A stretch of 64,000 bases of DNA, taken from NCBI GenBank assembly GCA_965238005.1, contig OZ250165.1, forward strand, positions 2,784,001 through 2,848,000, in the 5' to 3' direction. This document shows, in pieces, positions 16,418 through 54,924 of the stretch (positions are counted from its first letter, which is position 1; every line of letters begins with the position of its first letter). This DNA comes from Longimicrobiales bacterium (GTDB taxonomy: Bacteria > Gemmatimonadota > Gemmatimonadetes > Longimicrobiales > Gaopeijiaceae). The notes under the pieces were generated by a model that was not told the DNA's origin, made no database searches, and saw nothing but the letters and a program-made list of their open reading frames with translations. The position numbers and the translations under genes were made by a program.

Positions 16418-16770
16418 GGGAGCGACATCGGTCGTGTTCGACAACGGAACGACAAGGCGGGAATTATTTCGGGAGTCCTCTGCCCTTGCGAGGATCGTCG
16501 AGCTGAAGGACCTGCTCCGGTCCGCGCGGCCCGGAACGGCGATCGACGGGTTCACGACATGGCGTTCGAGCCGGCTTCCAGTGGGCGGATCTTGACCCCC
16601 GGACGGCGGGCGTCGGTGGCGTGCCGCGCGTGCACATCGACATCGGGGTGCTTGTGCACGGCATCGCCATTCCGATGTGCGCGCCGCCGATTCCGCATGT
16701 CGCTGGCGGCGTTGCGGTTGCACCACGGCCGCCGGACCGGCGATGCCGTTCCGGAGGGTGCGGCCGTGGC

Positions 16771-17329: not shown

Positions 17330-18304
17330 TCATCGGAAGCGTGCCCCCGCGAGCCGAACCGTCCGCCAGGTGTCGGTGCGTTGCATCAGCCCCCGCCCTG
17401 CCTGCCTGCGCGCCCGCTTCGTCAGCGCGACGCTGCGCTTCATCGCGGCCTGCAAGCCTCCGTACTCCATCAGGACCGGGACATCCCCCTTGATGATGGC
17501 CTGGTCGATAAGGTCGATCTCGCGGCCGATCCCGTGGTCGAATTCGGAGGGGCGGGGATCCCGCGCCCAGTTGGCGAGCACGGTCTCCGCCCGGCTGTCC
17601 TCCTCCGGTGTCCGGACGACGACCACGACCTCGATCCCGCAGCCGCGATCCCAGAGCGCCTTCCAGAGTTCGCGGTGCGCCGCGCCCCAGGAGCGGAGTG
17701 CCGTCGCTGTCTCGTGGCCCGGATCGAGGTAGACGAAAACGGCGCGCCGGGCGTCCAGCGCGACCGGCAGCCGGAGCGGGAAGTAGCGCCGGAGGTTCCC
17801 GGCCGCTCCCCGGTAGACCCGTTGGGGCAGGAGCGGGCGCTCGATGCCGAGCGCCTCGAAGGCGGCCACCTTCTCCGGCTCGGTCGCGAGCCAAGGCAGG
17901 CGGGAATGATCAAGCACATAGTCGAGCGAGAGCAGGCGCCGCATCAGCACTTCCGTGGAGGTGATCCGGCGGCGGCGGCGGTTCCCGACGCCGAGCGCCC
18001 GGTAGATCCGGCGCGCGTGGATTCGGCACACTCGACCGATGCCGTCGATGCCGGGCGGATCCTCTTCGACGGCCACGCCCTGCGCGACGAGGGCGCGGAC
18101 GGCGCGGCGCACCTTTTCGTGGTGGCAACCCAGAAAGCTCGTCCACTGAGCCCGAGTGAACACGCCGCCATGGAGACGGGCGAAGGCGATCCACTCGGCC
18201 TGACGGCCCGCCCAGCCAAATCCCTCGAGTGCCCGTTCGCGTCCCCGCAGGTGGACGATGGCTCCGCTCGCCGCCGAGTTGAACTGCTGCTTCAGCGTCT
18301 CCAT
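17330..18304 (-). CDS. Hypothetical element protein (possible wHTH + replication-relaxation-like domain)
   Basis: 324-aa ORF divergent from the mob module; family assignment tentative. Confidence 0.55.
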   Translation of the reverse strand: METLKQQFNSAASGAIVHLRGRERALEGFGWAGRQAEWIAFARLHGGVFTRAQWTSFLGCHHEKVRRAVRALVAQGVAVEEDPPGIDGIGRVCRIHARRIYRALGVGNRRRRRITSTEVLMRRLLSLDYVLDHSRLPWLATEPEKVAAFEALGIERPLLPQRVYRGAAGNLRRYFPLRLPVALDARRAVFVYLDPGHETATALRSWGAAHRELWKALWDRGCGIEVVVVVRTPEEDSRAETVLANWARDPRPSEFDHGIGREIDLIDQAIIKGDVPVLMEYGGLQAAMKRSVALTKRARRQAGRGLMQRTDTWRTVRLAGARFR

Positions 18305-23315: not shown

Positions 23316-24503
23316 CTATGGCTTGCGACTGTCGCCGGTGAGGTACGCAGCCCACTGCTCCATCAGGACGCGCCTGCGCTCGAACAGGTCCGAACGCGCA
23401 TAGGCAGCTTCCACCTTGTTGCGAACCGCATGCGCCAACGCGGCCTCGGCGACCTCACGCGGTGCGTTGGAACACTCGCCGCACCAGTCCCTGAAGCTCG
23501 AACGAAAGCCGTGCGGCACGGCCGCGATACCCAGGTCTCGAAGCAGCGTGGGGAGTCTGCTGCCGGGAAATGCGCGGCCCTCCGGCGACGGGAAAACGAG
23601 ACCGCTGCCGCCGCCGAGCGTCCGCGCCTCGCTCAGTATCTCCATGGCGCGCCCGGACAGCGGCACCCTGTGGGGGCGATGGGCTTTCGTGCGTTCGGCG
23701 GGAACCGTCCACTCCCGAGCCTCCAGGTCGATTTCATCCCAGTGCGCCAAGCGAACCTCTCCCGAGCGGGCCGCCGTCAACACCAGGAACTCGAAGGCGA
23801 GTTTCGTGGTCGGGTAAGCGTGCGACCTCCGCACCGTTTCCATCGCGCCCGCGACCTTCGAGTGAGGCAACGCGCGCATGTGCCGGACTACGGCTTGCTG
23901 TCGGCCGAGCGCTTGACCGAGCACGTCGCTGGCGGGGTTGTCCGGCCGAAGCCCCATCGCCACCGCCCACTTCATCACCGCCCCGATGCGCTGGCGCACC
24001 CGCCGGGCAGTCACCTGCTTGTCGTGCCAGATCGGTGTCAGCACCGCCAGAACGTCGGCTGTCGTTATCTCGCCAACCGGTCGATGGCCGAGCTGTGGGA
24101 ACGCATAGACGCGCAGGCTGGAGACCCAGTCCTTCGCATGCCTGGGGCTGCGCCAGCCCGGCCGCAGCTGTTCCAGAACACGGGCGGCCGCCTCGGCGAA
24201 CGTGGGCATGTCCCGGACCTTGTGCCGCTCGGTACGCGGATCGCCGCCCGAGCGCGCGATCTTGCGGTTCATGAATGCCTTCTCGCGCGCCTCGGCCAGC
24301 GATACCAGCTGGTAGCCCCCGAGCCCCAGCGTGCGGTTTCGACCCTGGATCCGTAGACGCTGCTCCCATCGGCGCGCGCCCGATCGGTCCACGCGCAGAT
24401 AGAGGCCGTTCCCATCGCAGTAGTATCCGGGCTTCGCACTGCGCACGAAGGCCGCGCTGAGTGCGTTATGCGGGCGCCTGCCTCGATGTTTGGGTAAATC
24501 CAT
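23316..24503 (-). CDS. P4-type tyrosine integrase, copy 2
   Basis: Near-identical to copy 1 except the C-terminus; catalytic motifs intact. Confidence 0.95.
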   Translation of the reverse strand: MDLPKHRGRRPHNALSAAFVRSAKPGYYCDGNGLYLRVDRSGARRWEQRLRIQGRNRTLGLGGYQLVSLAEAREKAFMNRKIARSGGDPRTERHKVRDMPTFAEAAARVLEQLRPGWRSPRHAKDWVSSLRVYAFPQLGHRPVGEITTADVLAVLTPIWHDKQVTARRVRQRIGAVMKWAVAMGLRPDNPASDVLGQALGRQQAVVRHMRALPHSKVAGAMETVRRSHAYPTTKLAFEFLVLTAARSGEVRLAHWDEIDLEAREWTVPAERTKAHRPHRVPLSGRAMEILSEARTLGGGSGLVFPSPEGRAFPGSRLPTLLRDLGIAAVPHGFRSSFRDWCGECSNAPREVAEAALAHAVRNKVEAAYARSDLFERRRVLMEQWAAYLTGDSRKP

Positions 24504-28180: not shown

Positions 28181-29347
28181 CTATTTAAATGTAATCGTGC
28201 GTTCCTCTAGATCAGCGATAACAGTCCCTCCTCGATGTTTACACACTTCCCTGAATACTCGAAATCCCTCCAGTATCGCGACCTCCCACTGCCAAAGTGG
28301 GCGACTCTCCACTTCATACCCTTTCACAAGTTTCTGAATGGCCTTCAACAGTGAGTAGTCGAGGGCGTTGATATTCCGAAAATGATGGTTCTGGAGGCCG
28401 TGGTTAAAGATCCATGTAGAGATGCCTTCTTCAATCAGGCTGGCACGTGCACCATCTTCATTCTCATCGATCTCTGGGCGGCTCTTCCGTTTGGCTTTGA
28501 ACAGGCGCCGCACAACTGGGGACCAGCCAAGAATCGCTGCATATGCGAGATGAAACACGTCGTGAAAGCGGTAATTATCTGGCGTAGAACGGTTGTCCGT
28601 TAATGGGTCTCCGATAGCGATTCCATTGCACTTCTGGATAACGTACTTCTTTCCTAACACATCTTTTTCTTTGAATACAATCTCAATCCGACGTGGCAGA
28701 CGCTCATCTTCGTCAAAGTCGTCGTCATACAGTGCTTGCCATTTCTGTTCCCTCGGCCATCGACTTTGAGTTTTGTTCATATTGGAGCGTGCCGCCGCGT
28801 CGAGGCTTACATCAGCAGCGTCAGCAGTCGCAACGAGGGCGAGCAAGATATCGGATAGGTCGGCTAAGAGTGCATCTTGATTCGTATCGAATCTCCCATT
28901 GCTGAAGTTATCAATTACCTGGCCAACATTTGCCGCAAGGGCCATGAGACGCCTCTCGACGACTTCTGTCGAGTGAGGTCCTTCAAAATCATCTTTTCTC
29001 GTTTGGATATCAATGAACGTTGAAGCGGCCTCTTGTCCCCTATAGTCCCAATCCGATAGACCGGCAGGTAGGCGCGTGGCAATTTCGGAAAAAGGAAGGC
29101 CTGCGCGAAGCGCTGCATTTGCGAAGTACCAAAGCACATCGCCCAACTCCTCGATGACCGAATCCCGGTATGCAACGTACGACTCCTTGTCCCGTTGTTT
29201 CTTCTTCAACTGGCTGAGTAAGCTGCCAGTTTCACCAAAAAGACCAAAAAGAACGAACCCTAATCCTGATAATCCTGGGCGGTCGTTCTTGTCAGTTAGT
29301 GTCGTTGCGTGCTGGTACTCGTCTAGTCCCAGTGGTGACGATGCCAT
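28181..29347 (-). CDS. MazG-family nucleotide pyrophosphohydrolase with C-terminal MazG-associated domain
   Basis: GLFGETGSL...EELGDVLWY; a second degenerate MazG repeat; GDPLTDN..YRFHDVFH..EDGARA..EE. Confidence 0.8.
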   Translation of the reverse strand: MASSPLGLDEYQHATTLTDKNDRPGLSGLGFVLFGLFGETGSLLSQLKKKQRDKESYVAYRDSVIEELGDVLWYFANAALRAGLPFSEIATRLPAGLSDWDYRGQEAASTFIDIQTRKDDFEGPHSTEVVERRLMALAANVGQVIDNFSNGRFDTNQDALLADLSDILLALVATADAADVSLDAAARSNMNKTQSRWPREQKWQALYDDDFDEDERLPRRIEIVFKEKDVLGKKYVIQKCNGIAIGDPLTDNRSTPDNYRFHDVFHLAYAAILGWSPVVRRLFKAKRKSRPEIDENEDGARASLIEEGISTWIFNHGLQNHHFRNINALDYSLLKAIQKLVKGYEVESRPLWQWEVAILEGFRVFREVCKHRGGTVIADLEERTITFK

Positions 29348-29616
29348 GAATTCGTACCTCTCGTGCCAGAGTATTGGGGCTCGTTGTGTCTTTGTTCAGA
29401 ATTCGGTAGGATGGGCCAATCTTACACTGAGGCAGGGATCAGCGCAGGGATTCTGGGCATGACCCACTGACTTCAAGGGTCGGTTCGTTCCGAGAGCACA
29501 CGCGGGAGCTGCTAGGTTGACCCACCAGGACCGACCATGCATCTGGCTTCGTCTTCGAGAAACTGTTCACGTACTCGGAGCCGGAGATCGCCCACAGATG
29601 CGGCGCTGAACGCGAA

Positions 29617-30690
29617 TCAGACCTGCTCTCCGAGTCCACTCGCAATCCGGGAGTTGATCCCCCACTTGGGCGGGTACCAGGGTCGTGGCAGCTCGCCTGT
29701 CTCTCGGAACGACTGCTTGATACGAGTTCTCCCAGACACTCCGGGGAAGTCGGGATGTGCAACTCTGGCGTACTTGCCCACTTCACAGAAGAGGTTTTGA
29801 CAGTCTATATACTGGAGTGGTCTGCCCCATAGATCCTTGAACGTGATTCCGAATCCTTCGAACTCCTCATCTTGCCGATCCACCATGAGCTTTATCACGT
29901 CGACTTCGTTCAATCCTCCGAGGTCGTGAAAACATTTGTGGATGCCGTCGATAGCGCCGGGGCCCGGCACAACGAACTCAGACTCGGAGAAATCAACAAT
30001 GGGTCCATAGTTCAGGTCGGTCACGAACTGATATGCTAGGAAGTCTCCAATAGATGGAAACGAGCGAATCAGCATGAACGCGTCCTGCATCCGTTGGCAT
30101 TCTTGGAGTCGGTCCGGCACGTCTGCAGCCATCATCTGCTCCAGCAATCGAAGGTGGTTGCGGTGCTTTCGTCGAGATCCGAACAAACTGGGTGAGGGAA
30201 CGATGTAGGCAGCGGAGTAGAGTTTGTCTCCGCGTCGAAAGGCTCCGTCTAGGACTCGGTCGTACTCCCCGAAGCTGTATGTCGACCAAGAGACTTCTCC
30301 AAACTCACTTTCGAGCCTCTGCCAAGTGTGAATTCGATTAAAGAGCTTGAAGAGGATCGTTCGAAAAAAAAGTTCGATGGGCGTTTGGAGTGGCTGGTGG
30401 ATGACACGCCGAATCAAAAACTGACTCGTCCGATCTGAAGCACGATACGCGTTCGTGAACTTGAACTTCTGAAGAATAGGATCCTCCGTCCATGGTGCAG
30501 GATGACCCTGGACGCGACGGAAGAAGATCTCCTGTCGAGCAGCCGCTAGGCGCCAGTAGCTCTCGTATACAGGTGTCGGGATTGCCGGTCGCAGGCGCAC
30601 AAAGACCTCGGGTGCGACTTGCGAAGGGGCCTTTCGGGACGAAATCGCTAGCCGCAGCTGCGCGTCGCCCGCTGGCTTCTCACGGCCCAA
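29617..30690 (-). CDS. DNA base-hypermodification protein (aGPT-Pplase2 / 5-hmdU-kinase-associated helical family)
   Basis: RQEIFFRR..PWTEDPILQKFKFTNAYRASDR; HhH-like FPSIGDFLAYQ; GPGA; QNLFCEVGKY. Confidence 0.75.
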   Translation of the reverse strand: MGREKPAGDAQLRLAISSRKAPSQVAPEVFVRLRPAIPTPVYESYWRLAAARQEIFFRRVQGHPAPWTEDPILQKFKFTNAYRASDRTSQFLIRRVIHQPLQTPIELFFRTILFKLFNRIHTWQRLESEFGEVSWSTYSFGEYDRVLDGAFRRGDKLYSAAYIVPSPSLFGSRRKHRNHLRLLEQMMAADVPDRLQECQRMQDAFMLIRSFPSIGDFLAYQFVTDLNYGPIVDFSESEFVVPGPGAIDGIHKCFHDLGGLNEVDVIKLMVDRQDEEFEGFGITFKDLWGRPLQYIDCQNLFCEVGKYARVAHPDFPGVSGRTRIKQSFRETGELPRPWYPPKWGINSRIASGLGEQV

Positions 30691-31297
30691 CGGTTGCGGT
30701 CAGATCCAAGGCCGCTCTCACCTTTTCCTTTGCCTGCTTTAACGTTCCTTCGTTAACGATCCGTATGACGTTCAGTTCTCCCTCTGCTAGCCGTCCGTAG
30801 GCGAGAGACAGCTTCCTGAATTGATCTCGGTCGTGCTCCTCCCGAAAAGGCTGCCGACGCTCGACCAGAAAGATTGGAGTGGGGCTGAGTGCACCCCATG
30901 TGCTCTTCTCCAATTCCAACAGGGCCGTCATCTGCGACTCAGCAACACCGTTAGCCACGCCATAGACCCAGGCCGACCACCAATACCGATCCAAGAGCAC
31001 GGTTTTGCCAGATCGAATGGCTGGCTTGATACGCTTGTCGATCGCATCAATGTGTGCCGCAACGTGGAGCATCTGGAGTGCAAATGGCTCAATGTCGTAA
31101 CTACCGTGATGAAGGTCATAGACCCAGCGACCCAGTGAACCGGGATCGTTACCCGGGAAGGCCAGGCCGACGACCGGAAGGTTCGCCTCCTTCAGAAGAT
31201 CCAGGCAAAATGAATGCAGCGTCGACTTGCCGACCCCGTCGGGTCCCTCCAAGACGATCAATCTTCCGGGCCGTGAGCCTCCGCCGTCCGGGCTCAT
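30680..31297 (-). CDS. Thymidylate (dNMP) kinase
   Basis: IVLEGPDGVGKST P-loop; LLDRYWWS. Confidence 0.85.
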   Translation of the reverse strand: MSPDGGGSRPGRLIVLEGPDGVGKSTLHSFCLDLLKEANLPVVGLAFPGNDPGSLGRWVYDLHHGSYDIEPFALQMLHVAAHIDAIDKRIKPAIRSGKTVLLDRYWWSAWVYGVANGVAESQMTALLELEKSTWGALSPTPIFLVERRQPFREEHDRDQFRKLSLAYGRLAEGELNVIRIVNEGTLKQAKEKVRAALDLTATVGP

Positions 31298-32022
31298 TCC
31301 TTGCGGAGCTCGCTGGCCAACCCAGCAAGCTCACCCTTCGAAAATCTATTCGAAAGGCCCGCGACTGAGGAGACGCAGGTAATCCGAGTCAGGTTTCGAT
31401 CGAAGGCGTCGGCAACGAACTCTCCCAGCCTCGCGAGCCCAAGATAGTTTCCGTAGCCACGATCGAAGATGTCCTGTTTCGCATAGAAGCCAGTCACCGC
31501 AAAACCGTTATGAGCCTCTGGCACGAAGCAAACCTGGTGCATGCACGGGAATCCGAGAAAGGGAGTCGGGAGGTGGTCTGTAGAGGGATCGAAGAAGGAA
31601 GCTACGAAGGCACTTCGGCGTTTCACGTTCCGGTTCCAGGTCGCGATGATTCTCTCAAGTTGGTTGATCTCCTTAACTCCGAACGAGATGAGGCGCAGAA
31701 AGTATGTGCCACGACGATTTGCAGGAATCTTGCAGATTCTCTTCTCGTAGACTTTACGATACCTCTCATAGAGAGCGGCACGCGACGTGCCGCGTCGCCA
31801 CATGCTGCTAGGGAAGATCGTCGAAGCCGTCGTCCCCACCCTCCAGACGCCCGGCTGAGCACAGAGGAGCGCGTCAACAGCACTGCGGACGTGGAGATCC
31901 TCAGGAGGGAGACCAGAGAAGCCAGAAACGGTAATCACCAGAGGACTGATCTCGCGATGATCGTAAGTTGCCAAGAACGCATGGGTCCACGCCCCGCTCA
32001 AAGTGTCGGATTCGATCAACAT
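31294..32022 (-). CDS. Divergent thymidylate-synthase-family protein
   Basis: GTYFLRL, INQLE, catalytic FPCMHQ, GYGNYLGL. Confidence 0.7.
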   Translation of the reverse strand: MLIESDTLSGAWTHAFLATYDHREISPLVITVSGFSGLPPEDLHVRSAVDALLCAQPGVWRVGTTASTIFPSSMWRRGTSRAALYERYRKVYEKRICKIPANRRGTYFLRLISFGVKEINQLERIIATWNRNVKRRSAFVASFFDPSTDHLPTPFLGFPCMHQVCFVPEAHNGFAVTGFYAKQDIFDRGYGNYLGLARLGEFVADAFDRNLTRITCVSSVAGLSNRFSKGELAGLASELRKE

Positions 32023-32041
32023 CGCAGGCCGCCGTGAAGTC

Positions 32042-32893
32042 TTAGTCGGGAAGAAAACGAAAGCGCGCGCGTCCCTGATACTTGGCACGAGCTACCCGAA
32101 CGAAGGCAGCCTTCCCGGACTGGAAAAGCACCCTCCCCCTACCGGGAGTAGTCGCCTCGCTCAGCAGAAATCTGCTTGTGCTTAGCCGGCACTCCAAGAC
32201 ATCACCCTCAATGGATGTACACGGGGGCAAAGCAACGACTGATCCGGTCTGAAGATCGATGGCTCGATCCGACCAATCCGAACTTACTATGGTGACGGCG
32301 CCCTTGATATCGGATTTCAAGAGATCCGTGCAGAGGTCGATAGGACGTAGCTTCTTCAGGACGTCATACCGCGCGCGCGGGAGAAATCCCAGAGAAAGTG
32401 CCATTTGGTTCACGAGAGTCGAGTAGCCGACGCCAAGCCACTGGGCTACTTGGAGGATCTCAACAGGAGACGCTACGCCGGGCTCCCAGCCGCGCTCCCT
32501 GAACCCTCTAGACACTGCCGTCATCGGCATCATGAGGAAAGCGGCAAACATATTGGCAAGCCACTCTGCTTCAGTTGCCTGGTCAGTGGGGTCCTCAGCG
32601 ATAAACGCATCCAATCTCGAACCGTGACCGAAGACGTGGTGTCCTAGCTCGTGCGCGCAGGAAAAGGCTTGACGTCCTGGCGGCCTGTCGGATGGTAGCA
32701 GGATCGTCGGGGTCTCTCCCGAATAATACATACCCTCCAACGATCCCAGGGGAACGAACAAGACTTCGAGGCCCGCTGCTTCGGCTAGGTCAATCACATC
32801 CAACGCTTCCCAAGGCTGCTTACCGTGCTTCTGGCGAGTTTCCAGGGCTGCACGAGCAGCCTCTAAACTAAGAGTGCGCTTTAACTTAGACAC
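32042..32893 (-). CDS. ImmA/IrrE-family metallopeptidase
   Basis: FSCAHELGHH...EWLANMFAAFLMMP. Confidence 0.88.
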   Translation of the reverse strand: MSKLKRTLSLEAARAALETRQKHGKQPWEALDVIDLAEAAGLEVLFVPLGSLEGMYYSGETPTILLPSDRPPGRQAFSCAHELGHHVFGHGSRLDAFIAEDPTDQATEAEWLANMFAAFLMMPMTAVSRGFRERGWEPGVASPVEILQVAQWLGVGYSTLVNQMALSLGFLPRARYDVLKKLRPIDLCTDLLKSDIKGAVTIVSSDWSDRAIDLQTGSVVALPPCTSIEGDVLECRLSTSRFLLSEATTPGRGRVLFQSGKAAFVRVARAKYQGRARFRFLPD

Positions 32894-33230
32894 CGGCTTG
32901 ACGAGCCCCCTGGATCGCCTTGATGATTTGGATCAAGGCATCTAGATCTTCCCGGCTCATCTTCTGGAGTTCGCGCGCAGCCACAACTGCCTCAAGCCGA
33001 AGGTCGTCGTCGTCTTCGGCCGTCAGCCAGCCCGTCGAGACACCATAGAGATCCGCAAAGCAGGCCAGCTCATCTGCACGCACTCTTCGGCGGCCAGCCT
33101 CTATTTCCGAGATTGTCGGGCGATGAAGCTTCATCAATCTCGCCGCCTGAGCCTGAGATAGCCCGGCCAGCTTGCGGGCCTTCTGGAGCCTTTCGGCAAG
33201 ACCTGCCACTCTGCTAACCTCATCAGACAT
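32886..33230 (-). CDS. XRE-family HTH regulator
   Basis: RLQKARKLAGLSQAQAA...TISEIEAGRR. Confidence 0.88.
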   Translation of the reverse strand: MSDEVSRVAGLAERLQKARKLAGLSQAQAARLMKLHRPTISEIEAGRRRVRADELACFADLYGVSTGWLTAEDDDDLRLEAVVAARELQKMSREDLDALIQIIKAIQGARQAGV

Positions 33231-33510
33231 TCTCAGCTCCCCCAAATCCAGGTGTCTGAGCAATCCGTTCGGCCACCTCCGCCACGGTCAGGACGGTCCC
33301 TGGCTCGTCCTCAGGGATGAGGACTCCCTTCACTTCAAACTTCAACTTTTCTGAGACCAAGACCTCTAGCTCGAGGCACTTGAGGCTATCGAACTCGTCC
33401 AGGTCAAGGGGCTTCGAATGCTCGGTGAGCTCTGGAGCGGGCAGACCCGAGCTAATCTGTATCTCACACAGAGTTTCGATCAGGACCCTCACAACTCCAC
33501 TATGCTCCAT
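33223..33510 (-). CDS. Acyl-carrier-protein-like protein
   Basis: 95 aa, acidic; FDSL phosphopantetheine-site motif; C-terminal TVAEVAERI. Confidence 0.6.
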   Translation of the reverse strand: MEHSGVVRVLIETLCEIQISSGLPAPELTEHSKPLDLDEFDSLKCLELEVLVSEKLKFEVKGVLIPEDEPGTVLTVAEVAERIAQTPGFGGAENV

Positions 33511-34272
33511 GCGATCTCTCTCCTTCCAAGACGATGGGTAAGATTATCTTACCATGACATAAGATACAGCATCCGGCCAGATGCGAAACAGGGATCTTTC
33601 TGCCGGCACGTCGGCCCCGGTCTGAAACCAGTCGCACGTTTGCCGGGCGAGCAAAAAGCAGAAGTGCAGGAAGAGGGACGCGACGAGGAAGGCAAGCTCT
33701 GGAGATGCCTCCAGTTCAGGATGGACCGGCGCCCTTGGTGGGCTACCGACACTTGTCTCAAGGATTCCGGTGCATAATCAGTCAACGCTGAGACCATGGC
33801 GGACGGGAGCGACCCCAGGCCAAACCAATACCACGCCCCAGATGGGTGCCTCTTCTGCCGCAGATCGCCCGTCCTCTACCGCCTTGAGAGCGATCCGATA
33901 CGGGGTGGCCCTACCTTCCGGGGTTGGGACAAGAGAAGCGCGAGAATACCGGCTATCACTAGCGCAGCTTGCATCATCTCCGGGACCTCCCAAACGGAGA
34001 CACGAACCCCCCGCGGGGGGTTCGGAGCGTTTCCCTCCGGGCGCTATCTACCCGCAGGGGAAGCGACATACGGCCCCCTGGCCAGGATCGGTAGGATTTC
34101 AAATCGCCGGACCATCATCGGGCCGTAGCCATCATCGCCGTCCAGGTCGGGCCGGTCGATCAGCCCAACCGTCAAAGCCAGGCAAACAGCCTCGGGATCT
34201 CGAGCCAGCGCCCGCTCACCACCGCGCCCCACACTCCGGCCGTCAGCTCTTCGCGGTCCAGCTGGTCAATTC

Positions 34273-34840: not shown

Positions 34841-36124
34841 TTGACGCGGAATCGCCAGTGTGCTCTCAAAGAGTTCAACGGGCTGGCGTTGCTCGATCTC
34901 AAGGCACGCGTAGAACGACCTCCGCAACGCAAGCCGCGCGGCCGGCATCCCAACAACGCGCTCACGCCGGTCTTCGTCCGCAACGTGAGCCGGGCCGGGC
35001 GCTATTGTGACGGCCAGGGCCTCTATCTCGATGTCCGGCCCACGGGGAGCCGGGGCTGGATCCAGCGCCTCACGATCCGGGGCCGCCGAACCGAACTCGG
35101 GCTCGGCGGATTCCCTCTGGTCTCGCTGAAGGAGGCGCGCGCGAAGGCGTTCGCGAACCGGAAGCTGGCCCGCGACGGTGGCGACCTCCTAGCCGAGAAG
35201 CGGCGGGCCGAGTCGATGCCCACCTTCGCGGAGGCGACACGGCAGGTCTGGACGCAGTTGCGGCCGGGCTGGCGCTCCGCGCAGCATGCGCAGCTATGGA
35301 TGAGCAGCCTGAAGCGCTTCGCCTTCCCCCGCATCGGCGGGATGCCGATTTCGGAGGTGACGAGCGCCGACGTGATCGGGATTCTGGCCCCGATCTGGCA
35401 CGACAAGGCAACCACCGCCCGGAAGCTGCGCCAGCGCATCCGCGCGGTCATGGAGTGGGCGGTGGCGATGGACCTTCGGCCCGACAACCCGTGCGATCGG
35501 ATCGCCCCGGTGCTCGGAGCCCACCGGAATGTTGTGCGTCACATGCGGGCGTTGCCTCACGGCGAGGTGGCGTCCGCGATCGAGAAGGTGCGGGGGTCCA
35601 ACTCGGGGCCGGTCGTGAAGCTGGCCTTCGAGCTGCTGGTGCTGACGGCGACGCGCTCCGGCGAGGTCCGTGGGGCGGTGTGGACGGAGATCGACCGGGA
35701 CGAGGGCGTGTGGACCATCCCGGCCGAGCGCACGAAGGGGAGCCGCGAGCACCGCCTCCCGCTCAGCGGTCGAGCGCTGGAGATTCTCGAGGAGGCGCGC
35801 GCGCTCGGTCGCGGCAGCCCGCTCGTGTTTCCGAGCGTGCGCGGCAAGCCGCTCGGGAATACGTCGTTGTGGGACCTGCTCAGGGGGCTGAAGATCGCGG
35901 CTGTGCCGCACGGCTTCCGGTCGTCGTTCCGGGACTGGGCGGCCGAGGAAACCGATCATCCACCCGAGGTGGCGGAGGCGGCGCTGGCGCACAAGGTCCG
36001 CAACCGGGTCGAGGCCGCGTACCGTCGCACGGATCTGTTCGAGCGGCGGCGTCGGCTGATGAACGATTGGGCCGCGTATCTGGCCGGCGAGCGTCGAGAC
36101 CCGGAGGCCGGTCCCAGCCGCTGA
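34841..36124 (+). CDS. P4-type tyrosine integrase, copy 3 (native start apparently lost; homology begins ~34915)
   Basis: Close to copy 4 from RPPQRKPRG onward; catalytic motifs present. Confidence 0.85.
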   Translation: MTRNRQCALKEFNGLALLDLKARVERPPQRKPRGRHPNNALTPVFVRNVSRAGRYCDGQGLYLDVRPTGSRGWIQRLTIRGRRTELGLGGFPLVSLKEARAKAFANRKLARDGGDLLAEKRRAESMPTFAEATRQVWTQLRPGWRSAQHAQLWMSSLKRFAFPRIGGMPISEVTSADVIGILAPIWHDKATTARKLRQRIRAVMEWAVAMDLRPDNPCDRIAPVLGAHRNVVRHMRALPHGEVASAIEKVRGSNSGPVVKLAFELLVLTATRSGEVRGAVWTEIDRDEGVWTIPAERTKGSREHRLPLSGRALEILEEARALGRGSPLVFPSVRGKPLGNTSLWDLLRGLKIAAVPHGFRSSFRDWAAEETDHPPEVAEAALAHKVRNRVEAAYRRTDLFERRRRLMNDWAAYLAGERRDPEAGPSR

Positions 36125-36163
36125 GGCGCGAGCCGTTGAGGCCCGATCCGAGGCCGATCCACG

Positions 36164-36300
36164 GCTGGCTCTTGACCCTTAAGGGTCAAGAGCCAGCATA
36201 CCCTTTGTACCCACAAAGGGGCTGGCGAGGGGGGCGCTCCGCTCCCCCTTCGATCCCCCCGAGGCCCGCGCTCCGGCGGAGCTCGCGGGTAGGGGGCGAG
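36164..36300. promoter_or_regulatory. oriT module with perfect 34-bp palindrome
   Basis: GCTGGCTCTTGACCCTT|AAGGGTCAAGAGCCAGC (36164-36197), then the conserved GC-rich block. Confidence 0.65.
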
Positions 36301-36524
36301 CCCCCCTTCCCCCCTGCCGGTGCGCTGCCCGCATCAGCGCTCGGTGGCCTTCCCGCCAAGGGATCCATGGAACGGGAGTATCCATGTCAAGAGGGTACCG
36401 TCAGGAGCGGGGCCGGGGAGACAGGGCGGGACGGTACCGGTGAACGCGGGATGCGGTCGCTGAGTCAGGCGAGAGCTCGCGGATGGAGCTGTTCGACCTG
36501 GCTCGCCGGTTGGGTGCATGGCGC

Positions 36525-37478
36525 TCATGCGTGGTGTCCAGGCGCGTACGCCGTCCAGATGCGATCCTGCTGCACGAGGGCGTTGGCGAGGACGAGGAGC
36601 TTCCGCATCACCGCCGTAAGGGCAACCTTCGGCGGTTTCCCCTTGGCCACGAGAGCCGCGTACTTCCGCTTGAAGTCGGGATTGTACCGGATCGCGACTA
36701 ACGCGGGCATGTAGAGCAATCGGCGCACCGGGTGCCTGCCACCCTGGATGAAGCTGCGTCCCTTCCAGGAGCCGGACTCCCGGGTCACTGGGGCGAGTCC
36801 GGCGAGGCTGGCGGCACGGGACCCGGTGAGAGTGCCCAGTTCAGGCATATGGACGATCAGTCCTGCGGCGGTGATGTCCGAGATGCCGGGGATGGAGGTC
36901 AGGATCTCGGACTGGCGCTCCAGAGCCTCCTCTGCCCGGAGCCGATTGCGGATCTCGGCGTCGATGCGCTTCAACTGGCGCTCGATCTGCTTCAGCCGTT
37001 GCTTGTTGAGCTGCTTGGCCACGGAGGTGCGCAAGTGCTTGCCGCGGTTGGTGATGGCGACCCGATCCCCGACCAGCGCATCGCGGACCAGCTGGAGTTC
37101 GGCAAGGTCGCGCTGCCCTTCGGACTTCGCTTGAGTCGGGCGGAGATCCTCGATGGCCGCCGCCATGGCGGCCAGCATCCGGGCGTCCACGGCATCGGTC
37201 TTGGCGCGCCGGCCGAGCGAGCGGGCGAAGGAGCGGACCTGGTAGGGGTTGATCGCGTAGAGGGGGAGCTTGGCCTTCAGGAGGGCATCCTCGAAGTCGC
37301 GGTGGAAGGGTCCGGTGGGTTCGTAGGCGATCCGGTCGACCTCGGAGCCGATCCAGGCGATCAGCTTCCGGAAGCCCGTCGGGTCATTCGAGAACCGGGA
37401 TGCTCTCCCCTCGGATACGGCGAAGACGTCGAGCCAGTCCTTGGAGATGTCGATCCCGATGGTGCGAAGGATGCTCAT
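36525..37478 (-). CDS. IS110 DEDD recombinase
   Basis: IGIDISK, YEPTG, AKTDAVDA, SIPGI, RESG (catalytic Ser). Confidence 0.93.
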   Translation of the reverse strand: MSILRTIGIDISKDWLDVFAVSEGRASRFSNDPTGFRKLIAWIGSEVDRIAYEPTGPFHRDFEDALLKAKLPLYAINPYQVRSFARSLGRRAKTDAVDARMLAAMAAAIEDLRPTQAKSEGQRDLAELQLVRDALVGDRVAITNRGKHLRTSVAKQLNKQRLKQIERQLKRIDAEIRNRLRAEEALERQSEILTSIPGISDITAAGLIVHMPELGTLTGSRAASLAGLAPVTRESGSWKGRSFIQGGRHPVRRLLYMPALVAIRYNPDFKRKYAALVAKGKPPKVALTAVMRKLLVLANALVQQDRIWTAYAPGHHA

Positions 37479-37484
37479 CTTCCC

Positions 37485-37705
37485 TTCTCCTGTGCTTGTC
37501 ATGCGAGCCTCGATGCTCATGTATCCATTCAGGACGTAGGGAAGGACGGTGGCGACCATACTCCCGTGCGGCCCCTCACGGCCCAGCGACCCGCGGTCCG
37601 ACCACCGTCCCTGTTCGGCGCCCGCTCCGGCTCGCTACGCTCGCCTCCTCGGGTGCCGAACAGCCCGGGCCTTCCCCGTGACCCGGACCTGCAGATCAAA
37701 CAGAC
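37485..37705 (-). ncRNA. Predicted bridge RNA
   Basis: Guides GGGTCGCT and ACGGGAG match the target; ATGGATAC and GACAAG match the donor junction; boundaries approximate. Confidence 0.75.
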
Positions 37706-38024
37706 ATACCTAAGAATGCAATAGACAAGCGACCCCAGGGGGCGGAGGCGGGCGCGTGAAAACGCGCACGGCTCCGCGCCCGTACCGGATCGTCAGATCG
37801 GGGGGTCGCTCCCGTCCCGGTCGGCGCGCCCTGATGCGCCCCCGCCGACCGGGCAAAACCTGGCGTAAACGCAACAACCGCAAAGAGATCGCGAGCTACG
37901 CCCCTGTGAATCGCGACCGGGGTAATCTGTGTATCGACCCCCGACGTGTCTTGCACATCGCAGTCCTGGCGTGGCGCGTCGGCTTCTCATCGGAATCGGG
38001 CCCGCCTATGCGAAGGAGGAGACG

Positions 38025-38510
38025 TTACGCCGGGCACGCCACCTGCCGAAGCATATCGGTGGTGTCCTCCAGGTCGAAGGTGGCCGTGACGGCCCCCCTG
38101 TTTGTCGTGACCTCAAGCTCTAGGGATTGGAAGCGGGCGAGCAGCCCGAGGAACCTGAGCCTCTCGGCCTCCAGGTGGAACGTGAGCCACGAGAGACCGT
38201 TGTTCCACCGGACGCGCTCCTGCGCTCCGTCGTCGAAGCGGTAGAGGACGGCGCCGCTGGTGAACTGCTCGCCGTCGTTGCCCTCGATGTAGAGATCCAG
38301 GCTGTCCATATAGCTTCCCGACAACGCGCGGAAGCACGCGTACTCCCAGACCAGGCGGTGCTCGGTGTCGTAGAGGCTCGCGGCCATAGCGGCCGGGCGC
38401 GAGCGGAGGGGATCGGTCTCTGCCGACTCCTCCATCTCCCACTGAGCCGAGACGGGAGTGACGTAGAGTAGAGCGAGCACGGCCCCGAGGGTCGCCTTGT
38501 TGACCAGCAT
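38025..38510 (-). CDS. Hypothetical secreted protein
   Basis: Signal peptide MLVNKATLGAVLALLYVTPVSAQW. Confidence 0.55.
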   Translation of the reverse strand: MLVNKATLGAVLALLYVTPVSAQWEMEESAETDPLRSRPAAMAASLYDTEHRLVWEYACFRALSGSYMDSLDLYIEGNDGEQFTSGAVLYRFDDGAQERVRWNNGLSWLTFHLEAERLRFLGLLARFQSLELEVTTNRGAVTATFDLEDTTDMLRQVACPA

Positions 38511-41363: not shown

Positions 41364-42843
41364 TATGTGGACGCCCCCCTGGTTGGCAAGCCTGACGTCG
41401 TACCGAAGTCGCTGGCAGTCAGGTCAGGTACGGTACGGTCGTATGTGCGGCCTCTTGGTGCGGCACTTCTGGCCGCGGGCCCGTATGGTGTTCGTGAGAT
41501 CGGATCCAAATCGCAATGGCGGGCTCGGTGGCCCATCGTAGGCTACTGGTTTTTCCGACCCCGTCTTGTCGACCGTTTGCCCCTACCTTGTCCGCCGTCC
41601 TGCCTGCCCTCTCCAGTTGGGACCTTCCCAGCTCATGCCCATTCGGGTGATCGAGCCGTCAGCCCCGATGATCTCATCTCTCGCCTCCTCCGGGTTCCGG
41701 GTCTGGCCAACGCCTCTTCGCTACACGGATCCGACTCGCAACCCTACGCCGCGGCAGAAACGGCCTTCGTCACTCCCCGTGCCCTGTAGTTCTCCCCCCT
41801 CACCGTCACGGCCCAGATGATGCGCTCCATCCTGTTGGCCAGAGCCACCGCAACCACCTTCCTCGGCTTCTCGTCCAGCATCCGCCGAAGCCAGGGATCA
41901 GTGACTGGACCCCGCCGGATGGCACTCGAGATGACTGCCGTCGCCCCCAGGTACAGGAGCCTCCGGATGTCGCGCTGTCCCATCTTCGTGATCCGCCCCA
42001 GCCGCTGGCGGCCACCCGCCGAGGATTCACGAGGCGTGAGCCCGACCCATGCCGCGAAGTCGCGTCCATTGCGGAAGCTCTCCATCGGCGGAGCAAAGGT
42101 GTGGACCGCCATCGCCGTGCGCTCTCCCACCCCCGGGATCGTCATCAGGCGCCCGAGCGCCTCATCTTCCCTCGCAATGCGACGGATCTCCCGGTCCATC
42201 TCATGGATCTCCCCATCCAGCTCGTGGATCCGCTCGATGAGGAGGCGTATGGCGGGAGGCCCCATCGCCGGGAAATGCTCCTCACACCTGGCGAACGCCT
42301 CCTCCAGTCTCCCGATGTTGTCGGTCCCACGCGGAGCGACGAGGCCGAACTCCGCGAGGTGACCCCGCAGCGCGTTGATCGTCTGGGTCCGCTGGCGCAC
42401 GAGGAGCGCCCGGCTCCGGAACACCACCGAGCACGCCTGCGCTTCCTCGGTCTTCACGGCCACGAACCGCATCGTCGGCCGCTGGGCCGCCTCGACGATC
42501 GCCCCCGCGTCGTTCGCGTCGTTCTTCTGCCTCTTGACGTACGGCTTCACGTACACCGGGGAATCAAACGGACCACATGGCCGAGTTCCTGGATCTGCCG
42601 CCCCCAATAGTGGGCGCTACCGCACACCTCTAACACGACCCGACAGGCGGGCTGCCTGGCGAGGAACCCGAGCAGCTTCGAGCGCGTGAGCTTCCTGCGC
42701 AGCACAGGCTCACCGCCCGCAGTGGCTCCGTGCAGTTGGAAGTACCTCTTCGAGATGTCTATACCGATGATGCTGACCACCTTGTCCATGGATCCCCCCT
42801 CTCGTGTCCCGAACGCGCCCGGTGTGGGGGGCGTCCACTCCAT
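41364..42843 (-). mobile_element. IS110-family element, IS1111-type, inserted in an oriT module
   Basis: Subterminal IRs GTGGACGCCCCC / GGGGGCGTCCAC; long downstream non-coding region; flanks rejoin into the module seen at 23240-23270. Confidence 0.82.
41744..42789 (-). pseudogene. IS110/IS1111 recombinase, frameshifted near 42555
   Basis: IGIDISK...LEVCG in one frame; YVKPYVKRQKNDANDA...TIPGVG...SAGG in another. Confidence 0.85.
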
Positions 42844-50502: not shown

Positions 50503-51726
50503 TCAGCGGATCGGTCCGGCCTCCGCGTCTCGACGCTCTCTGGCTAGGTAGGCAGCCCAGTCGTTAATCAGTCGGCGTCGGCGCTCGAACAGGTCCGAGC
50601 GCCGGTACGCCGCCTCGATCTGGTTGCGGACCTTGTGCGCCAGCGCCGCCTCCGCCACCTCGCGAGGGTGGTCCGTCTCTTCGGCCGCCCAGTCGCGAAA
50701 GCTCGACCGGAAGCCGTGCGGCACGGCCGCGATCTTCAACTCCCCGAGCAGTTCCGACAGCGCCGTGCTCGCGAATGGCTTCCCGCGCACGCCCGGAAAC
50801 ACGAGCGGGCTGCCGCGACCGAGCATCCGCGTCTCCTCGAGGATCTCCAACGCACGGCGGCATAGCGGGACCCGGTGCTCGCGGTTCCCCTTCGTGCGCA
50901 GCGCCGGGATGGTCCACACGCCTGCGTCCCGGTCGATCTCCGTCCAGACCGCCCCCCGGACCTCGCCGGAGCGTACCGCCGTCAGCACCAGCAACTCGAA
51001 GGCCAGCTTGACCACTGGCCGCGCGTTCGACGCCCGCACCGTCTCGATCGCGGACGCCACCTCACCGTGCGGCAACGCCGGCATGTGCCGGACAAGCCCC
51101 CCCTGCGCTCCGAGCACCGGACCGATCCGGTCGCACGGGTTGTCGGGCCTGAGATCCATCGCCACGGCCCACTCCATGACCGCGCGGATGCGCTGGCGCA
51201 ATTTCCGGGCGGTGGGCGGCATGTCGTGCCAGATCGGAGCGAGAATCCCGATCACGTCGGCGCTCGTCACTTCCGCAATCGGCATCTCACCGATGCGGGG
51301 GATCGCGTAGCGCTCCAGGCTCTTCAGCCAGAGCTGCGCATGCTGAGGGGAGCGCCAGCCCGGCCGCAGTTGGTTCCAGACCTGCCCCGCCGCCTCCGCG
51401 AAGGTGGGCATCGACTCGGCCCGCCGCTTCTCGGCCAGGAGGTCGCCACCGTCGCGGGCCAGCTTCCGGTTCGCGAACGCCTTCTCGCGCGCTTCCTTCA
51501 GCGAGACGAGGGGGAATCCTCCGAGCCCAAGCTCGGTTCGGCGGCCCCGGATCGTGAGGCGCTGCACCCAGCCCCGGCTACCCGTGGGCCGGACATCGAG
51601 ATAGAGCCCCTGGCCGTCGCAATAGCGTCCGGCCTGGCTCACGTTGCGGACGAAGGCGGGCGTGAGCGCGTTGTGGGGATGCTGGCCGCGCGGCTTGCGT
51701 TGCGGAGGTCGGTTGGGGAGTGTCAT
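50503..51726 (-). CDS. P4-type tyrosine integrase, copy 4
   Basis: Arm-binding DGQGLYL; TAVRSGE, HGFRSSFRDW, LAH, AAY. Confidence 0.95.
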   Translation of the reverse strand: MTLPNRPPQRKPRGQHPHNALTPAFVRNVSQAGRYCDGQGLYLDVRPTGSRGWVQRLTIRGRRTELGLGGFPLVSLKEAREKAFANRKLARDGGDLLAEKRRAESMPTFAEAAGQVWNQLRPGWRSPQHAQLWLKSLERYAIPRIGEMPIAEVTSADVIGILAPIWHDMPPTARKLRQRIRAVMEWAVAMDLRPDNPCDRIGPVLGAQGGLVRHMPALPHGEVASAIETVRASNARPVVKLAFELLVLTAVRSGEVRGAVWTEIDRDAGVWTIPALRTKGNREHRVPLCRRALEILEETRMLGRGSPLVFPGVRGKPFASTALSELLGELKIAAVPHGFRSSFRDWAAEETDHPREVAEAALAHKVRNQIEAAYRRSDLFERRRRLINDWAAYLARERRDAEAGPIR

Positions 51727-51912
51727 ACCCGCCAATATATCCACCATCATATAGTGGATGCAAGGGTGTGTAACGCGTCGGTACGGGACAGGGAATACCT
51801 TCATGTCTCGTGGTAAGTCAATATAAACAAGTCAGTTATGTGCGTTACGGGCCTTGGCTGGACATAATGGTAATATCCTACCATGCAGCCCTCCGGGAAG
51901 GGTGTCGGACCG

Positions 51913-53047: not shown

Positions 53048-53437
53048 ATGAGTGAGAGAACATCCGTCAAGGCCCTGCCCGCCAACTGGCGCAGGCACGC
53101 CAAGGCGCTCCGACGCTACGGGGGCGAGACTCCGGCCACCGCGCTCGAAAGCTGCGCCGCCGAACTCGAAGCCACGCTCGTCGAGCGGGACGAGACCACC
53201 TTCTCGCTCGTCGAGGCGGCCACGGAGAGCGGCTACTCCGCCGACCACCTCGGCCGCCTGGCCCGCGACGGCAGGATCCCCAACGCCGGACGCCCCGGCG
53301 CGCCCAGGATCGCCCGCGGAGACCTGCCCCGGAAGGCTCACGCGCCAACGGAGCCGCGACTGGCGGAGCAGCCCCGCCGACGCGACGTTTCAAACGTGCA
53401 GATCGTGCAGTCCATCATCGAAAAAGGAATCGAATGA
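53048..53437 (+). CDS. Excisionase-like HTH protein
   Basis: FSLVEAATESGYSADHLGRLARDGRIP; overlaps the integrase start. Confidence 0.6.
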   Translation: MSERTSVKALPANWRRHAKALRRYGGETPATALESCAAELEATLVERDETTFSLVEAATESGYSADHLGRLARDGRIPNAGRPGAPRIARGDLPRKAHAPTEPRLAEQPRRRDVSNVQIVQSIIEKGIE

Positions 53438-54606
53438 TGGCACGCACGAAACGAGTCCGGCGCAGCTATGGCGCCGGCGAATGGGGCCGGAACCGGGTAC
53501 GGGTCTTTCCCGATCCCAAGACCGGCTTGTACCAGATCGAGTGGCGCGAGGACGGGCGCAGGCTCACCCGGTCGCTGAAACACCGCGACTGGAGGCGGGC
53601 GAAGCGGCAGGCGGACGAGGTCGCCGCGGGCTTCGCCGGGCCGGAGCTGAACGGCAAGAAAAACGCCGAGCCCGAGCCGCTCACCCTGGAGACGCTTTTT
53701 GACATCTACGGTGAGGAGGTGACGCCCACCAAGGGCAGGCATTCGCGGCAGCACGACAGGGCCGCGATGAGGATGTTCCTGGGTTGCTTCGGCAGGGACC
53801 GAAAGCCAGTAACGCTCTCACAGCGGGACTGGGACCGGTTCATCCGGGAGCGTAGGGCGGGCAGGGTCGGGCCGAGCGGGAAGCCCGTGTCCGATCGAAT
53901 GATTGAATACGACCTGAAGTTCCTGCTCGCGATCCTCAATTGGGCCGCGAAGTCGAGGGACGAGGAGGGAAGGCTCCTCCTCGAGTCGAACCCGCTGAGG
54001 GGCTTGAAAACGCCCAGGGAGAAGAATCCGAAACGAGTGGTCCTCATCCAGGCGGAGTACGAGGCTTTGCTCCAAGTGTCTCGCGCCTTGGATTGGCGGT
54101 TCCGCGTGGCGCTGGTGATCGCGCACGAGACGGGACACCGCATCGGTGCCATCCGCCAGCTCCGGTGGTCGGACATCGACATGGAGGGCAAGACCATCCG
54201 ATGGTGTGGCGAGCACGAGAAGACCGGTTACGAGCACCGGACGCCCGTGACGGCCGAGGTGCTCGCCGTCTTGGACGAAGTGCGGAGACAAAACCCCGGG
54301 ACCGGGGACGTTCCTCTGCTTCCCGCGCCGAAGGACCCCTCCGTGTGTGTGGGCCGCTGGCTCACCCGTGGCTGGTGGAACAAGGCTGTGGCGCGCGCCG
54401 GGTTGCAACCCAAGCGTGGGCGGGGCTGGCACTCACTGAGGCGGAAGTTCGCTTCGGACCTCATGAATCAGCCGCTCAAGGTGCTCTGCGAACTCGGCGG
54501 CTGGAAGACGGCCCAGACGGTGCTGCAGTGCTACCAGAGGGCCGACGAGGGGCAGCTCAGGAAGGCCCTTGGGCACCGGCGGAGGGCCGTTTTTCCCGCC
54601 AATTAG
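53434..54606 (+). CDS. Tyrosine integrase adjacent to tRNA-Ile
   Basis: ETGHRIG, HSLRR, GGW, catalytic Y (QCY). Confidence 0.9.
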   Translation: MMARTKRVRRSYGAGEWGRNRVRVFPDPKTGLYQIEWREDGRRLTRSLKHRDWRRAKRQADEVAAGFAGPELNGKKNAEPEPLTLETLFDIYGEEVTPTKGRHSRQHDRAAMRMFLGCFGRDRKPVTLSQRDWDRFIRERRAGRVGPSGKPVSDRMIEYDLKFLLAILNWAAKSRDEEGRLLLESNPLRGLKTPREKNPKRVVLIQAEYEALLQVSRALDWRFRVALVIAHETGHRIGAIRQLRWSDIDMEGKTIRWCGEHEKTGYEHRTPVTAEVLAVLDEVRRQNPGTGDVPLLPAPKDPSVCVGRWLTRGWWNKAVARAGLQPKRGRGWHSLRRKFASDLMNQPLKVLCELGGWKTAQTVLQCYQRADEGQLRKALGHRRRAVFPAN

Positions 54607-54656: not shown

Positions 54657-54730
<74 letters not shown>

Positions 54731-54924
54731 CTTTTTAAGTACTAGCCCCGTAAGACCTTAGGGCTTGGCCGGCGGCTCGCCGTAAGGGCGCGGTGACATT
54801 CATGGTGGACAACCTGGCCATTGGGTTGTTCCCGGTACTGGTTACACTGCTGGGCTCGTACGTGAACTTTTTACAGGCAAACCCGGCGATGTTTGGAGTG
54901 GTGGCGGGAATCTACTGGGCGCCG

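Follow-up and report, generated by a model that had tools for sequence, protein, structure and literature searches.

Among the IS110-family insertion sequences (IS), one of the known systems closest to the one reported here is IS621 from Escherichia coli (PDB 8wt6), which is directed by a bridge RNA. According to the published account (PMC11208160), the target-binding loop of this RNA comes first and the donor-binding loop second; the 5' side of a loop pairs with the bottom strand over 8-9 nt and the 3' side with the top strand over 4-7 nt, core included. Bridge or seeker RNAs, targets in repetitive extragenic palindromes (REP), junction promoters and natural guide replacement are all in print for the IS110 family (PMC11208160, PMC11208158, PMC11187229, PMC12288879). 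Here we describe a related element from a Longimicrobiales bacterium (Gemmatimonadota). It lies in a stretch of 64,000 nucleotides, below called the window, which covers positions 2,784,001 to 2,848,000 of contig OZ250165.1 (assembly GCA_965238005.1); all coordinates are those of the window unless a contig is named. With a probability of about 0.9, we read it as a bridge-RNA-guided IS110 element aimed at GGGGTCG-CT-CCCGT.

Similar to IS621, the element combines the same domain pair and catalytic residues with a CT core, and its predicted bridge RNA is located in the long left end, with a target loop followed by a donor loop and the core included in the guides. The strand sense of pairing (5' loop side with the bottom strand, 3' side with the top strand), the putative promoter rebuilt across the circle junction and the palindromic repeat as natural target are further points of likeness to the published system (PMC11208160). 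Unlike IS621, the element is known from sequence alone and belongs to a Gemmatimonadota-type lineage; its sequence is no more than a distant relative of that of IS621 (phmmer E 1.4e-31). It also has a right target guide that measures 7 nt with the core counted, an additional 5' stem-loop, and a target repeat that is confined to islands instead of being a genome-wide REP. The IS110-group features that were tested are all present, namely the domains, catalytic residues, CT core, end lengths, two-loop RNA, guide-site co-variation and junction promoter hexamers; the IS621 layout with a CT core, proposed in a preliminary description of this DNA, fits in respect of domains, active site, ends, loops and co-variation.

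Read on the minus strand, 37729-36379 is an IS110-type insertion sequence of 1351 bp, counting one copy of the CT core that is found at each side. The reading is GGGGTCG-CT-TGTCTATTGC ... CTCTTGACATGGATA-CT-CCCGT, with TGTC following the left core and ATGGATA preceding the right one (coordinates in the table). Because the 2-nt core makes the borders ambiguous, the ends can be placed at 36379-37729 or at 36377-37727. Taking out the 1351-bp block restores the site GGGGTCGCTCCCGT, and the joined ends of a circle would read ATGGATA-CT-TGTC; both sequences are present as the preliminary description had them. The left non-coding end is longer than the right one (251 and 146 nt), and no inverted repeat of at least 6 nt was found in the terminal 45 nt. 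The long left end and the lack of sub-terminal inverted repeats place the element in the IS110 group and not in the IS1111 group, for which the published definitions give sub-terminal inverted repeats of 7-17 bp and a longer non-coding region downstream of the gene (PMC11208160, PMC11187229). Assignment to the IS1111 group was rejected on both counts.

The recombinase open reading frame (ORF) is intact, as had been claimed: it is open, its 317 amino acids make it full length by comparison with homologues of 315-333 amino acids, and the catalytic residues are present. The form of 344 amino acids in which the ORF had been listed begins too early; the homologues and a AGGAGAAGGGAAG stretch ahead of the ATG at 37478 argue for the 317-residue start. 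Pfam analysis revealed the domains PF01548 (E 1.1e-22) and PF02371 (E 4.9e-19), each of which passes its curated cut-off, and residues 4-302 align with the structurally solved recombinases of IS621 (8wt6) and ISCro4 (9t56) at E about 1e-31. D10, E53, D95, D98 and S235-G236 align to D11, E60, D102, D105 and S241-G242 of IS621, the active-site roles of which are described in PMC11208158; the five IS621 catalytic residues are conserved. Among 8000 candidates scored, 7547 homologues were found at E <=1e-20. The gene encodes a DEDD/Tnp serine-assisted recombinase with an intact active site.

The left non-coding end has a minimum free energy of -118.8 kcal/mol (z -3.31), and none of 200 shuffled sequences folded as low. 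Folding across homologues, which the preliminary description had suggested, was done with RNAalifold on an alignment of 36 distinct left ends (this element and 35 related loci) and gave a two-loop consensus of 52 pairs: a 5' stem-loop, then two internal loops, each enclosed by a stem and containing a small inner hairpin. In this consensus 99.1% of the cells are paired, as compared to 95.2 +/- 0.2 in shuffles. Compensatory pairs, in which both sides have changed, number 17 as against 6.3 +/- 1.6 after shuffling (0 of 500 shuffles reach 17) and 2-5 in a control in which the partners were slid by 1-3 columns; in the helix of the 5' stem-loop both sides have changed in 11 of 12 pairs. The left end is predicted to encode a structured RNA of roughly 230 nt.

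The target loop of this RNA carries CGGGTCGCT on its 5' side, including the 8-nt left target guide GGGTCGCT (37592-37585), and ACGGGAG on its 3' side; it is closed by a stem in which GGACGGTGG (37610-37602) pairs with CCACCGTCC (37552-37544). The donor loop has ATGGATAC on the 5' side and GACAAG on the 3' side, and its outer stem takes in the ribosome-binding stretch. The 5' sides of both loops have the sense of the left target or left donor half plus the core, and the 3' sides are the reverse complement of the core plus the right halves. Guides and stem all lie on the minus strand at the positions first proposed for them.

Relatives were obtained by scanning one genome per species, and the following comparison covers the best 80 of 148 confirmed related stretches. 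Nearly all of these are from Longimicrobiales or other Gemmatimonadota metagenome-assembled genomes (MAGs), with a few titled Acidobacteriota, Bryobacterales or Gammaproteobacteria. Their recombinases are 75-93% identical, and often several occur in a single assembly at different sites, which indicates that the lineage is mobile. All complete related copies start with CTTGT(C/T)T and finish with ATGGATA. The donor-loop columns are invariant in the alignment of 36 sequences, likewise the element ends that they match; variability is highest in the guide stretches of the target loop, which follow the flanks.

Guides and sites were compared at 70 of 81 loci (this one and the 80 relatives) that have both ends and both loops, which gave 59 distinct guide/site pairs; 11 loci that were truncated or had no anchor were dropped (L020, L027, L029, L042, L069, L071, L086, L087, L089, L090 and L091). 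The left target guides match their own left flanks at a mean of 6.66 of 8 positions, as compared to 5.34 +/- 0.14 when re-paired at random (largest 5.88, 2000 permutations), and the right target guides match their own right flanks at 5.22 of 7, as compared to 3.65 +/- 0.13 (largest 4.08, 2000 permutations), figures that overstate independence because the copies are related. The class-by-class picture of guides and sites is stronger evidence than these means. At least five guide classes with cognate flanks were found (GGGTCG-CT, GGCTGG-CT, CACGGG-CT/GCTAA, TTCAGG-CT and CTGGCTG-CT/ACCAG). Guides of the GGTCGC type, that is of the GGGTCGCT type, are at xGGGTCG-CT in 13 of 13 loci, with right halves that match perfectly in eight cases (7/7) and at 6/7 in two, 5/7 in one and 4/7 in one. 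The guides CTGGCTGCT/CTGGTAG go with the site CTGGCTG-CT-ACCAG, the guides TCACGGGCT/TTAGCAG with (A/C)CACGGG-CT-GCTA(G/A), the guide TTCAGGCT with GTTCAGG-CT, and the large clade of (A/T)(A/G/T)GCTGGC guides with sites ending in GCTGG-CT. The preliminary description had named insertion of other copies at unrelated sites as what would speak against it, and copies that share their guides were not scattered over unrelated sites. These sequence comparisons show that the relatives keep the scaffold and the donor loop, have other target guides and sit at the sites that those guides spell.

The same comparisons bear on the view that the matches between left end and flanks are due to chance, or are a by-product of site recognition by the protein alone, with an RNA that has no guiding role. 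The guide segments are indeed short (6-9 nt) in a genome of 65% G+C, and some copies occupy sites unlike their guides. However, the four segments occur in the right order, in the right loops and with the right strand sense, the guides track the flanks across at least five classes while the proteins are 75-93% identical, and the published account gives experimental proof for the homologous IS621 system (PMC11208160). We regard this explanation as very improbable and already disfavoured.

Several observations nevertheless weigh against guidance by the bridge RNA as set out above. At its first position the left target guide has C and the site G, and the left donor guide pairs with the first core base only (ATGGATAC is followed by A). 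An Rfam search of 36100-38100 at E up to 1 gave no match to the RNA, so that there is no independent model-based call for it. The shuffle control of the guide/site comparison keeps the relatedness among copies. Two related loci, L023 and L024, have CTGGCTGCT guides that spell CTGGCTG-CT-ACCAG and occupy a GGGGTCG-CT-CTCGT arm, with matches of 4/8 and 3/7; left halves are also poor in L037/L038/L062 and L070/L072, and in the largest clade (L043-L053, L073, L085 and others) the left half matches at 5-8 of 8 positions and the right half often at 3-5 of 7. Finally, the genome holds one full copy of the element and a left-end relic of 57 nt, and there are five other exact 14-nt targets in it with no further full copy of the element. 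The misfit copies could be explained by guide exchange after insertion or by insertion at partially matching sites, the latter being reported for IS621 in a preprint abstract (10.64898/2026.08.31.748434). L023 and L024 represent two places in one Longimicrobiales assembly with identical flanks, both in an arm of the same repeat family that is interrupted here. At some left junctions of the largest sister clade, short GCTT repeats stand ahead of the element.

When the ends are joined, TTGACA of the right end (36390-36385) and CATTCT of the left end (37718-37713) come to lie 17 nt apart, as established by hand count and scripted scoring; the junction promoter that had been postulated is thus present as a sequence pattern. 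In all 70 loci scored, the right end offers a -35-like and the left end a -10-like hexamer; the two are 17-18 nt apart and agree with the consensus at 9 or more of 12 positions. The largest clade (27 loci) has another pair of hexamers, TTGTGA and CATAAT, at an unchanged spacing. A scan of the integrated, linear element for sigma-70-like promoters found no sites. Rebuilding of a promoter on the circle is described for the IS110 family in PMC11208160. By analogy with the family (IS621), the element would be excised as a circle, which would bring the right-end -35 box beside the left-end -10 box to drive the RNA; the complex of recombinase and RNA would then pair with the donor junction and with GGGGTCG-CT-CCCGT, and strands would be exchanged at the CT core.

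In the genome, which is a single contig of 4.84 Mb, this element is the only full copy. The relic (L002, G000:C1:526202-526258, where G000 is the present genome) corresponds to the left end with 89% identity over 55 nt, follows GGGGGGGGCG and has been cut short by another insertion; ten further, different PF01548 matches are present in the genome. A DNA search of 60 other related genomes, including the unpublished G037, revealed no full copy, the best other match being 88 nt at 77% identity. The 22 public runs listed include none of RNA. One X1 contig (from four contig-only runs) joins 36376 to 37728 with 2 ambiguous letters and skips exactly 1351 bases. It was rejected as evidence for excision since its shorter side has 21 letters and the target is a repeat; most likely it comes from another, uninterrupted copy of the repeat.

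The anatomy of the element is complete, and mobility of this copy is putative. It could be that the bridge-RNA anatomy is real but this copy is a resting or dead passenger that came in a single time together with the island and has ceased to transpose in this host. Such a history would agree with the one full copy and one truncated relic in 4.84 Mb, with the lack of a second full element in spite of five other exact 14-nt targets and 40 copies of a 12-nt repeat arm (see below), and with the integrated arrangement being without a sigma-70-like promoter. We consider it unlikely, however: the ORF is open and of full length with its catalytic residues, and the same integrity is seen in the guides, at both ends and in the two halves of the promoter. 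Site-specific IS elements commonly have few copies, which is no proof of inactivity. That the element is a candidate programmable tool, as had been suggested, is a reasonable expectation from the family to which it belongs.

The 14-mer GGGGTCGCTCCCGT has two further exact matches in the window, at 33803-33816 (minus) and 37802-37815 (plus), and with up to 2 mismatches the 14-nt target occurs 12 times as compared to 1.89 +/- 1.51 expected (largest 7). The motif GGGAGCGACC, said to occur about ten more times, was counted as an exact 10-mer 11 times in the window, as compared to 0.46 +/- 0.69 expected (largest 3, 100 shuffles). Of the 12-mer arm GGGGTCGCTCCC the genome has 40 copies, nearly all arranged in inverted pairs that face inward at a distance of 74-82 nt, and the repeat is represented by 20 intact pairs and one that is split by the IS. 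The two arms and about 40 nt past one arm are common to all 20 intact copies, and their inner GC-rich hairpin is of one of two kinds; 17 of them also share about 150 nt on the other side of the repeat, and 8-10 run into a conserved gene ending about 170 nt ahead of the first arm. As DNA, the target palindrome folds with -27.4 kcal/mol (z -2.33). Rfam gave no matches at E up to 1 in 16400-17400, and at gathering thresholds only a tRNA and a group II intron in the whole window; in view of this outcome neither the RNA nor the target repeat is named by a library model. A Tn3-family inverted repeat or a miniature inverted-repeat transposable element (MITE), suggested by the GGGG start, was rejected since the ends with GGGG point inward and conservation continues outward on just one of the sides.

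The repeat copies are unevenly distributed: 34 of the 40 arms fall in four 200-kb bins at 0.6-1.0 and 2.6-3.0 Mb. Their neighbours were surveyed by scanning 30 of the 70 nearest ORFs around intact copies, in addition to the annotation of the window. Tyrosine integrases lie 52-755 nt from 6 of 21 repeat copies. Five of these integrases converge with the repeat, among them the one next to the IS, the stop codon of which is about 250 nt from the insertion point. Near other copies the survey revealed AlpA, NikA/MobC, a VirB11-like ATPase, a TraG/TrwB-like coupling protein, an MmeI-type enzyme and IS3. No REP-associated tyrosine transposase (RAYT, PF01797) was found in the genome, which is 95.85% complete. 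Among 61 related genomes, the exact-arm pattern occurs in four (16 times in the present one, 24 and 11 times in two of the same genus, and 7 times in one of another genus), and a reversed control pattern in none. In other MAGs, five related IS copies that are inserted in the repeat adjoin a homologue of the conserved gene, with either arm being used; no integrase was found in the flanks of 12 related GGTCGC-guide loci (0/12).

A classical REP was rejected as a description of the target, given the clustering of the copies in islands instead of a genome-wide spread and the RAYT result. We read the target as the palindromic tail of a conserved island module in islands rich in integrase and type IV secretion system (T4SS) genes. 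A serious possibility, although we hold it to be the less probable one, is that the target is an ordinary intergenic palindrome of the host, REP-like or a terminator, which is regionally common and plays no functional part in other mobile elements. In its favour, the repeat is palindromic, extragenic and GC-rich with two variants of the inner hairpin, reminiscent of mosaics of REP or bacterial interspersed mosaic elements (BIME), and such mosaics are targeted by other IS110 members according to published reports (PMC11208160; PMC12288879). An integrase within 755 nt for only 6 of 21 copies and the 0/12 result for related loci also agree with a host palindrome. On the other side stand the concentration of 34 of 40 arms in four bins, the negative RAYT search of a nearly complete genome, the neighbouring AlpA, NikA/MobC, VirB11-like and coupling proteins, and the restriction of the exact-arm pattern to 4 of 61 genomes. 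Furthermore, 10 copies follow the same island gene, full or truncated, at about 170 nt, and five related loci elsewhere do likewise. In our view it is plausible, and supported in part, that other mobile elements have the target as a cis-element, as had been proposed: its confinement to integrase- and T4SS-rich islands and its tie to a conserved island gene were borne out, and any role for it there is putative.

Insertion at one fixed position of a repeated intergenic palindrome is shared with ISPpu9 and ISPpu10, REP-targeting IS110-family elements of Pseudomonas putida, which differ in host phylum and in repeat family. For ISPpu10 targets, a GC-rich stem-loop 5' of the paired sequence is reported (10.64898/2026.03.19.712850). 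A GC-rich stem-loop is found here as well, directly 5' of the paired target GGGGTCG, with a putative role in recognition. A cis-acting sequence of another mobile element as target is described for the IS1111-group elements IS4321 and IS5075 (inverted repeats of the Tn21 family) and ISKpn4 and ISPst6 (integron attC sites) in PMC11187229, which also documents natural re-direction by guide replacement among close relatives. These are likewise DEDD-family IS with an RNA guide, but they carry sub-terminal inverted repeats together with an RNA downstream of the gene, neither of which is seen here, and their targets are known mobile-element cis-sites, whereas the role of the present repeat in the host islands is putative.

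The conserved gene ahead of the repeat is present in 8 full and 6 partial copies in the genome (copies in L114 and L116-L121) and encodes a protein of 324 amino acids. Among 8000 candidates, 2598 homologues were found at E <=1e-5, none of them informatively named, and all Atlas neighbours are unnamed. No Pfam, NCBIfam or PHROGs family matches above threshold; below threshold there are Pfam AbiEi_4 (E 0.013) and one PHROGs match of unknown function (E 0.033). An AlphaFold model (predicted local distance difference test, pLDDT, 77.6; predicted template modelling score, pTM, 0.73) had no Foldseek match at E <=0.001, and VIA-align returned MarR-type winged-helix matches only, at residues about 26-108 (best Z 7.3), and gave no assignment for the C-terminal half. 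On this model, the protein probably carries an N-terminal MarR-like winged helix. In the published IS110 work consulted, where gene and repeat were not searched by name, we did not find this lineage, its two island-bound repeat targets or the adjoining gene.

The second of these targets is a palindromic repeat family at 36150-36290 (minus), between the integrase stop codon and the IS. It reads ...CTCGCCAGCCCC, a hairpin, and GGGTATGCTGG-CT-CTTGACCC TTAA GGGTCAAGAGCCAGCC, and this site, which is unoccupied, belongs to the class that a sister IS clade with left guides of the type ATATGCTGGC targets. Of the 30 occurrences of its motif GTANGCTGGCT in the genome, 22 fall in the four 200-kb bins of the first repeat.

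Table. Coordinates of the element, its parts and adjoining features in the window.
Feature	Coordinates	Strand	Basis
IS110-group insertion sequence, 1351 bp	36379..37729	-	Flanks read; ends CTTGTCT... and ...ATGGATA common to homologous loci
Rest of target palindrome: inner GC-rich stem-loop and partner arm GGGGTCGCTCCCGT (plus strand, 37802-37815)	37737..37815	-	Exact 14-mer
Left target half GGGGTCG, then core CT (37729-37728)	37730..37736	-	Matches left target guide CGGGTCGCT at 8/9, core counted
Left non-coding end, 251 nt, encodes predicted bridge RNA	37479..37729	-	Fold energy and consensus fold
-10-like CATTCT, 17 nt from right-end TTGACA once joined	37713..37718	-	
5' stem-loop of predicted RNA, upstream of both binding loops	37611..37663	-	Consensus fold
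Target-binding loop (predicted): outer stem, CGGGTCGCT 37593-37585, inner hairpin 37582-37570, ACGGGAG 37567-37561	37544..37610	-	
Donor-binding loop (predicted): outer stem, ATGGATAC 37528-37521, inner hairpin 37519-37504, GACAAG 37500-37495	37480..37543	-	
Recombinase gene, 317 amino acids; D10, E53, D95, D98, S235-G236	36525..37478	-	Pfam; alignment to 8wt6 and 9t56
Right non-coding end, 146 nt; TTGACA 36390-36385, left donor half ATGGATA 36385-36379	36379..36524	-	
Second CT core (36378-36377) and right target half CCCGT (36376-36372)	36372..36378	-	Reverse complement of ACGGGAG, 7/7
Conserved right-hand module of target repeat (TCCATGGATCCCTTGGCGGGAAGGCC...)	36330..36371	-	Common to other genomic copies
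Tyrosine integrase gene	34841..36124	+	PF22022, PF13356, PF00589
Conserved gene, 324 amino acids, N-terminal winged helix (predicted)	17330..18304	-	Ends about 170 nt before target palindrome

The window as a whole is a mosaic of stacked islands. It contains five tyrosine integrase genes (283-1485, 23316-24503, 34841-36124, 50503-51804 and 53434-54606), scattered T4SS genes (CagX, TrbI, TrbL, VirB3 and TrbC), a type III restriction-modification pair, a TIR-domain protein, and transposases of the IS256, IS3 and IS5 types. A tRNA-Ile (54657-54731) adjoins one of the integrases, and a group II intron domain is found at 58729-58964. A second, unrelated IS110-family ORF at 41744-42607 (minus) is 31% identical to part of the first; it matches only positions 87-152 of the DEDD profile and may be truncated or frameshifted. 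A block of low G+C content (52-58%) at 28181-33263 (minus) encodes a MazG/MazG_C protein, a 5-hmdU DNA kinase helical-domain protein and a thymidylate-kinase-like protein, followed by an IrrE-like M78 peptidase and a helix-turn-helix protein. We take this gene set to be of the kind linked to thymidine hypermodification of DNA.

The finding leaves the understanding of how IS110 elements work unchanged. What it adds is a clean natural bridge-RNA element outside the Proteobacteria with four guides that can be read by eye, and relatives in which guides are replaced on a conserved scaffold and which form a ready natural set of orthologues and guide variants for the testing of bridge recombinases. 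Less ordinary is the target of the element, which is a palindromic repeat located after a conserved, unannotated winged-helix gene and beside integrases in islands rich in conjugation genes. Should the repeat be a working site of these islands, they would be disrupted or marked by the IS, and the repeat would be of help in defining a new family of integrative elements. More tentatively, and with some doubt, we propose that the GGGAGCGACCCC...GGGGTCGCTCCC and ...GCTGG-CT... hairpin repeats are cis-sites of an undescribed but widespread integrative/conjugative family that the IS lineage parasitises. If so, the repeats would be sites such as an attachment region, an element end or an origin, on elements marked by the 324-residue winged-helix gene and carried by Gemmatimonadota, Acidobacteriota and Chloroflexota MAGs. 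The IS110 lineage would then have diversified its guides to live on those elements, as an RNA-guided parasite beyond the integron and Tn21 cases of the IS1111 group.

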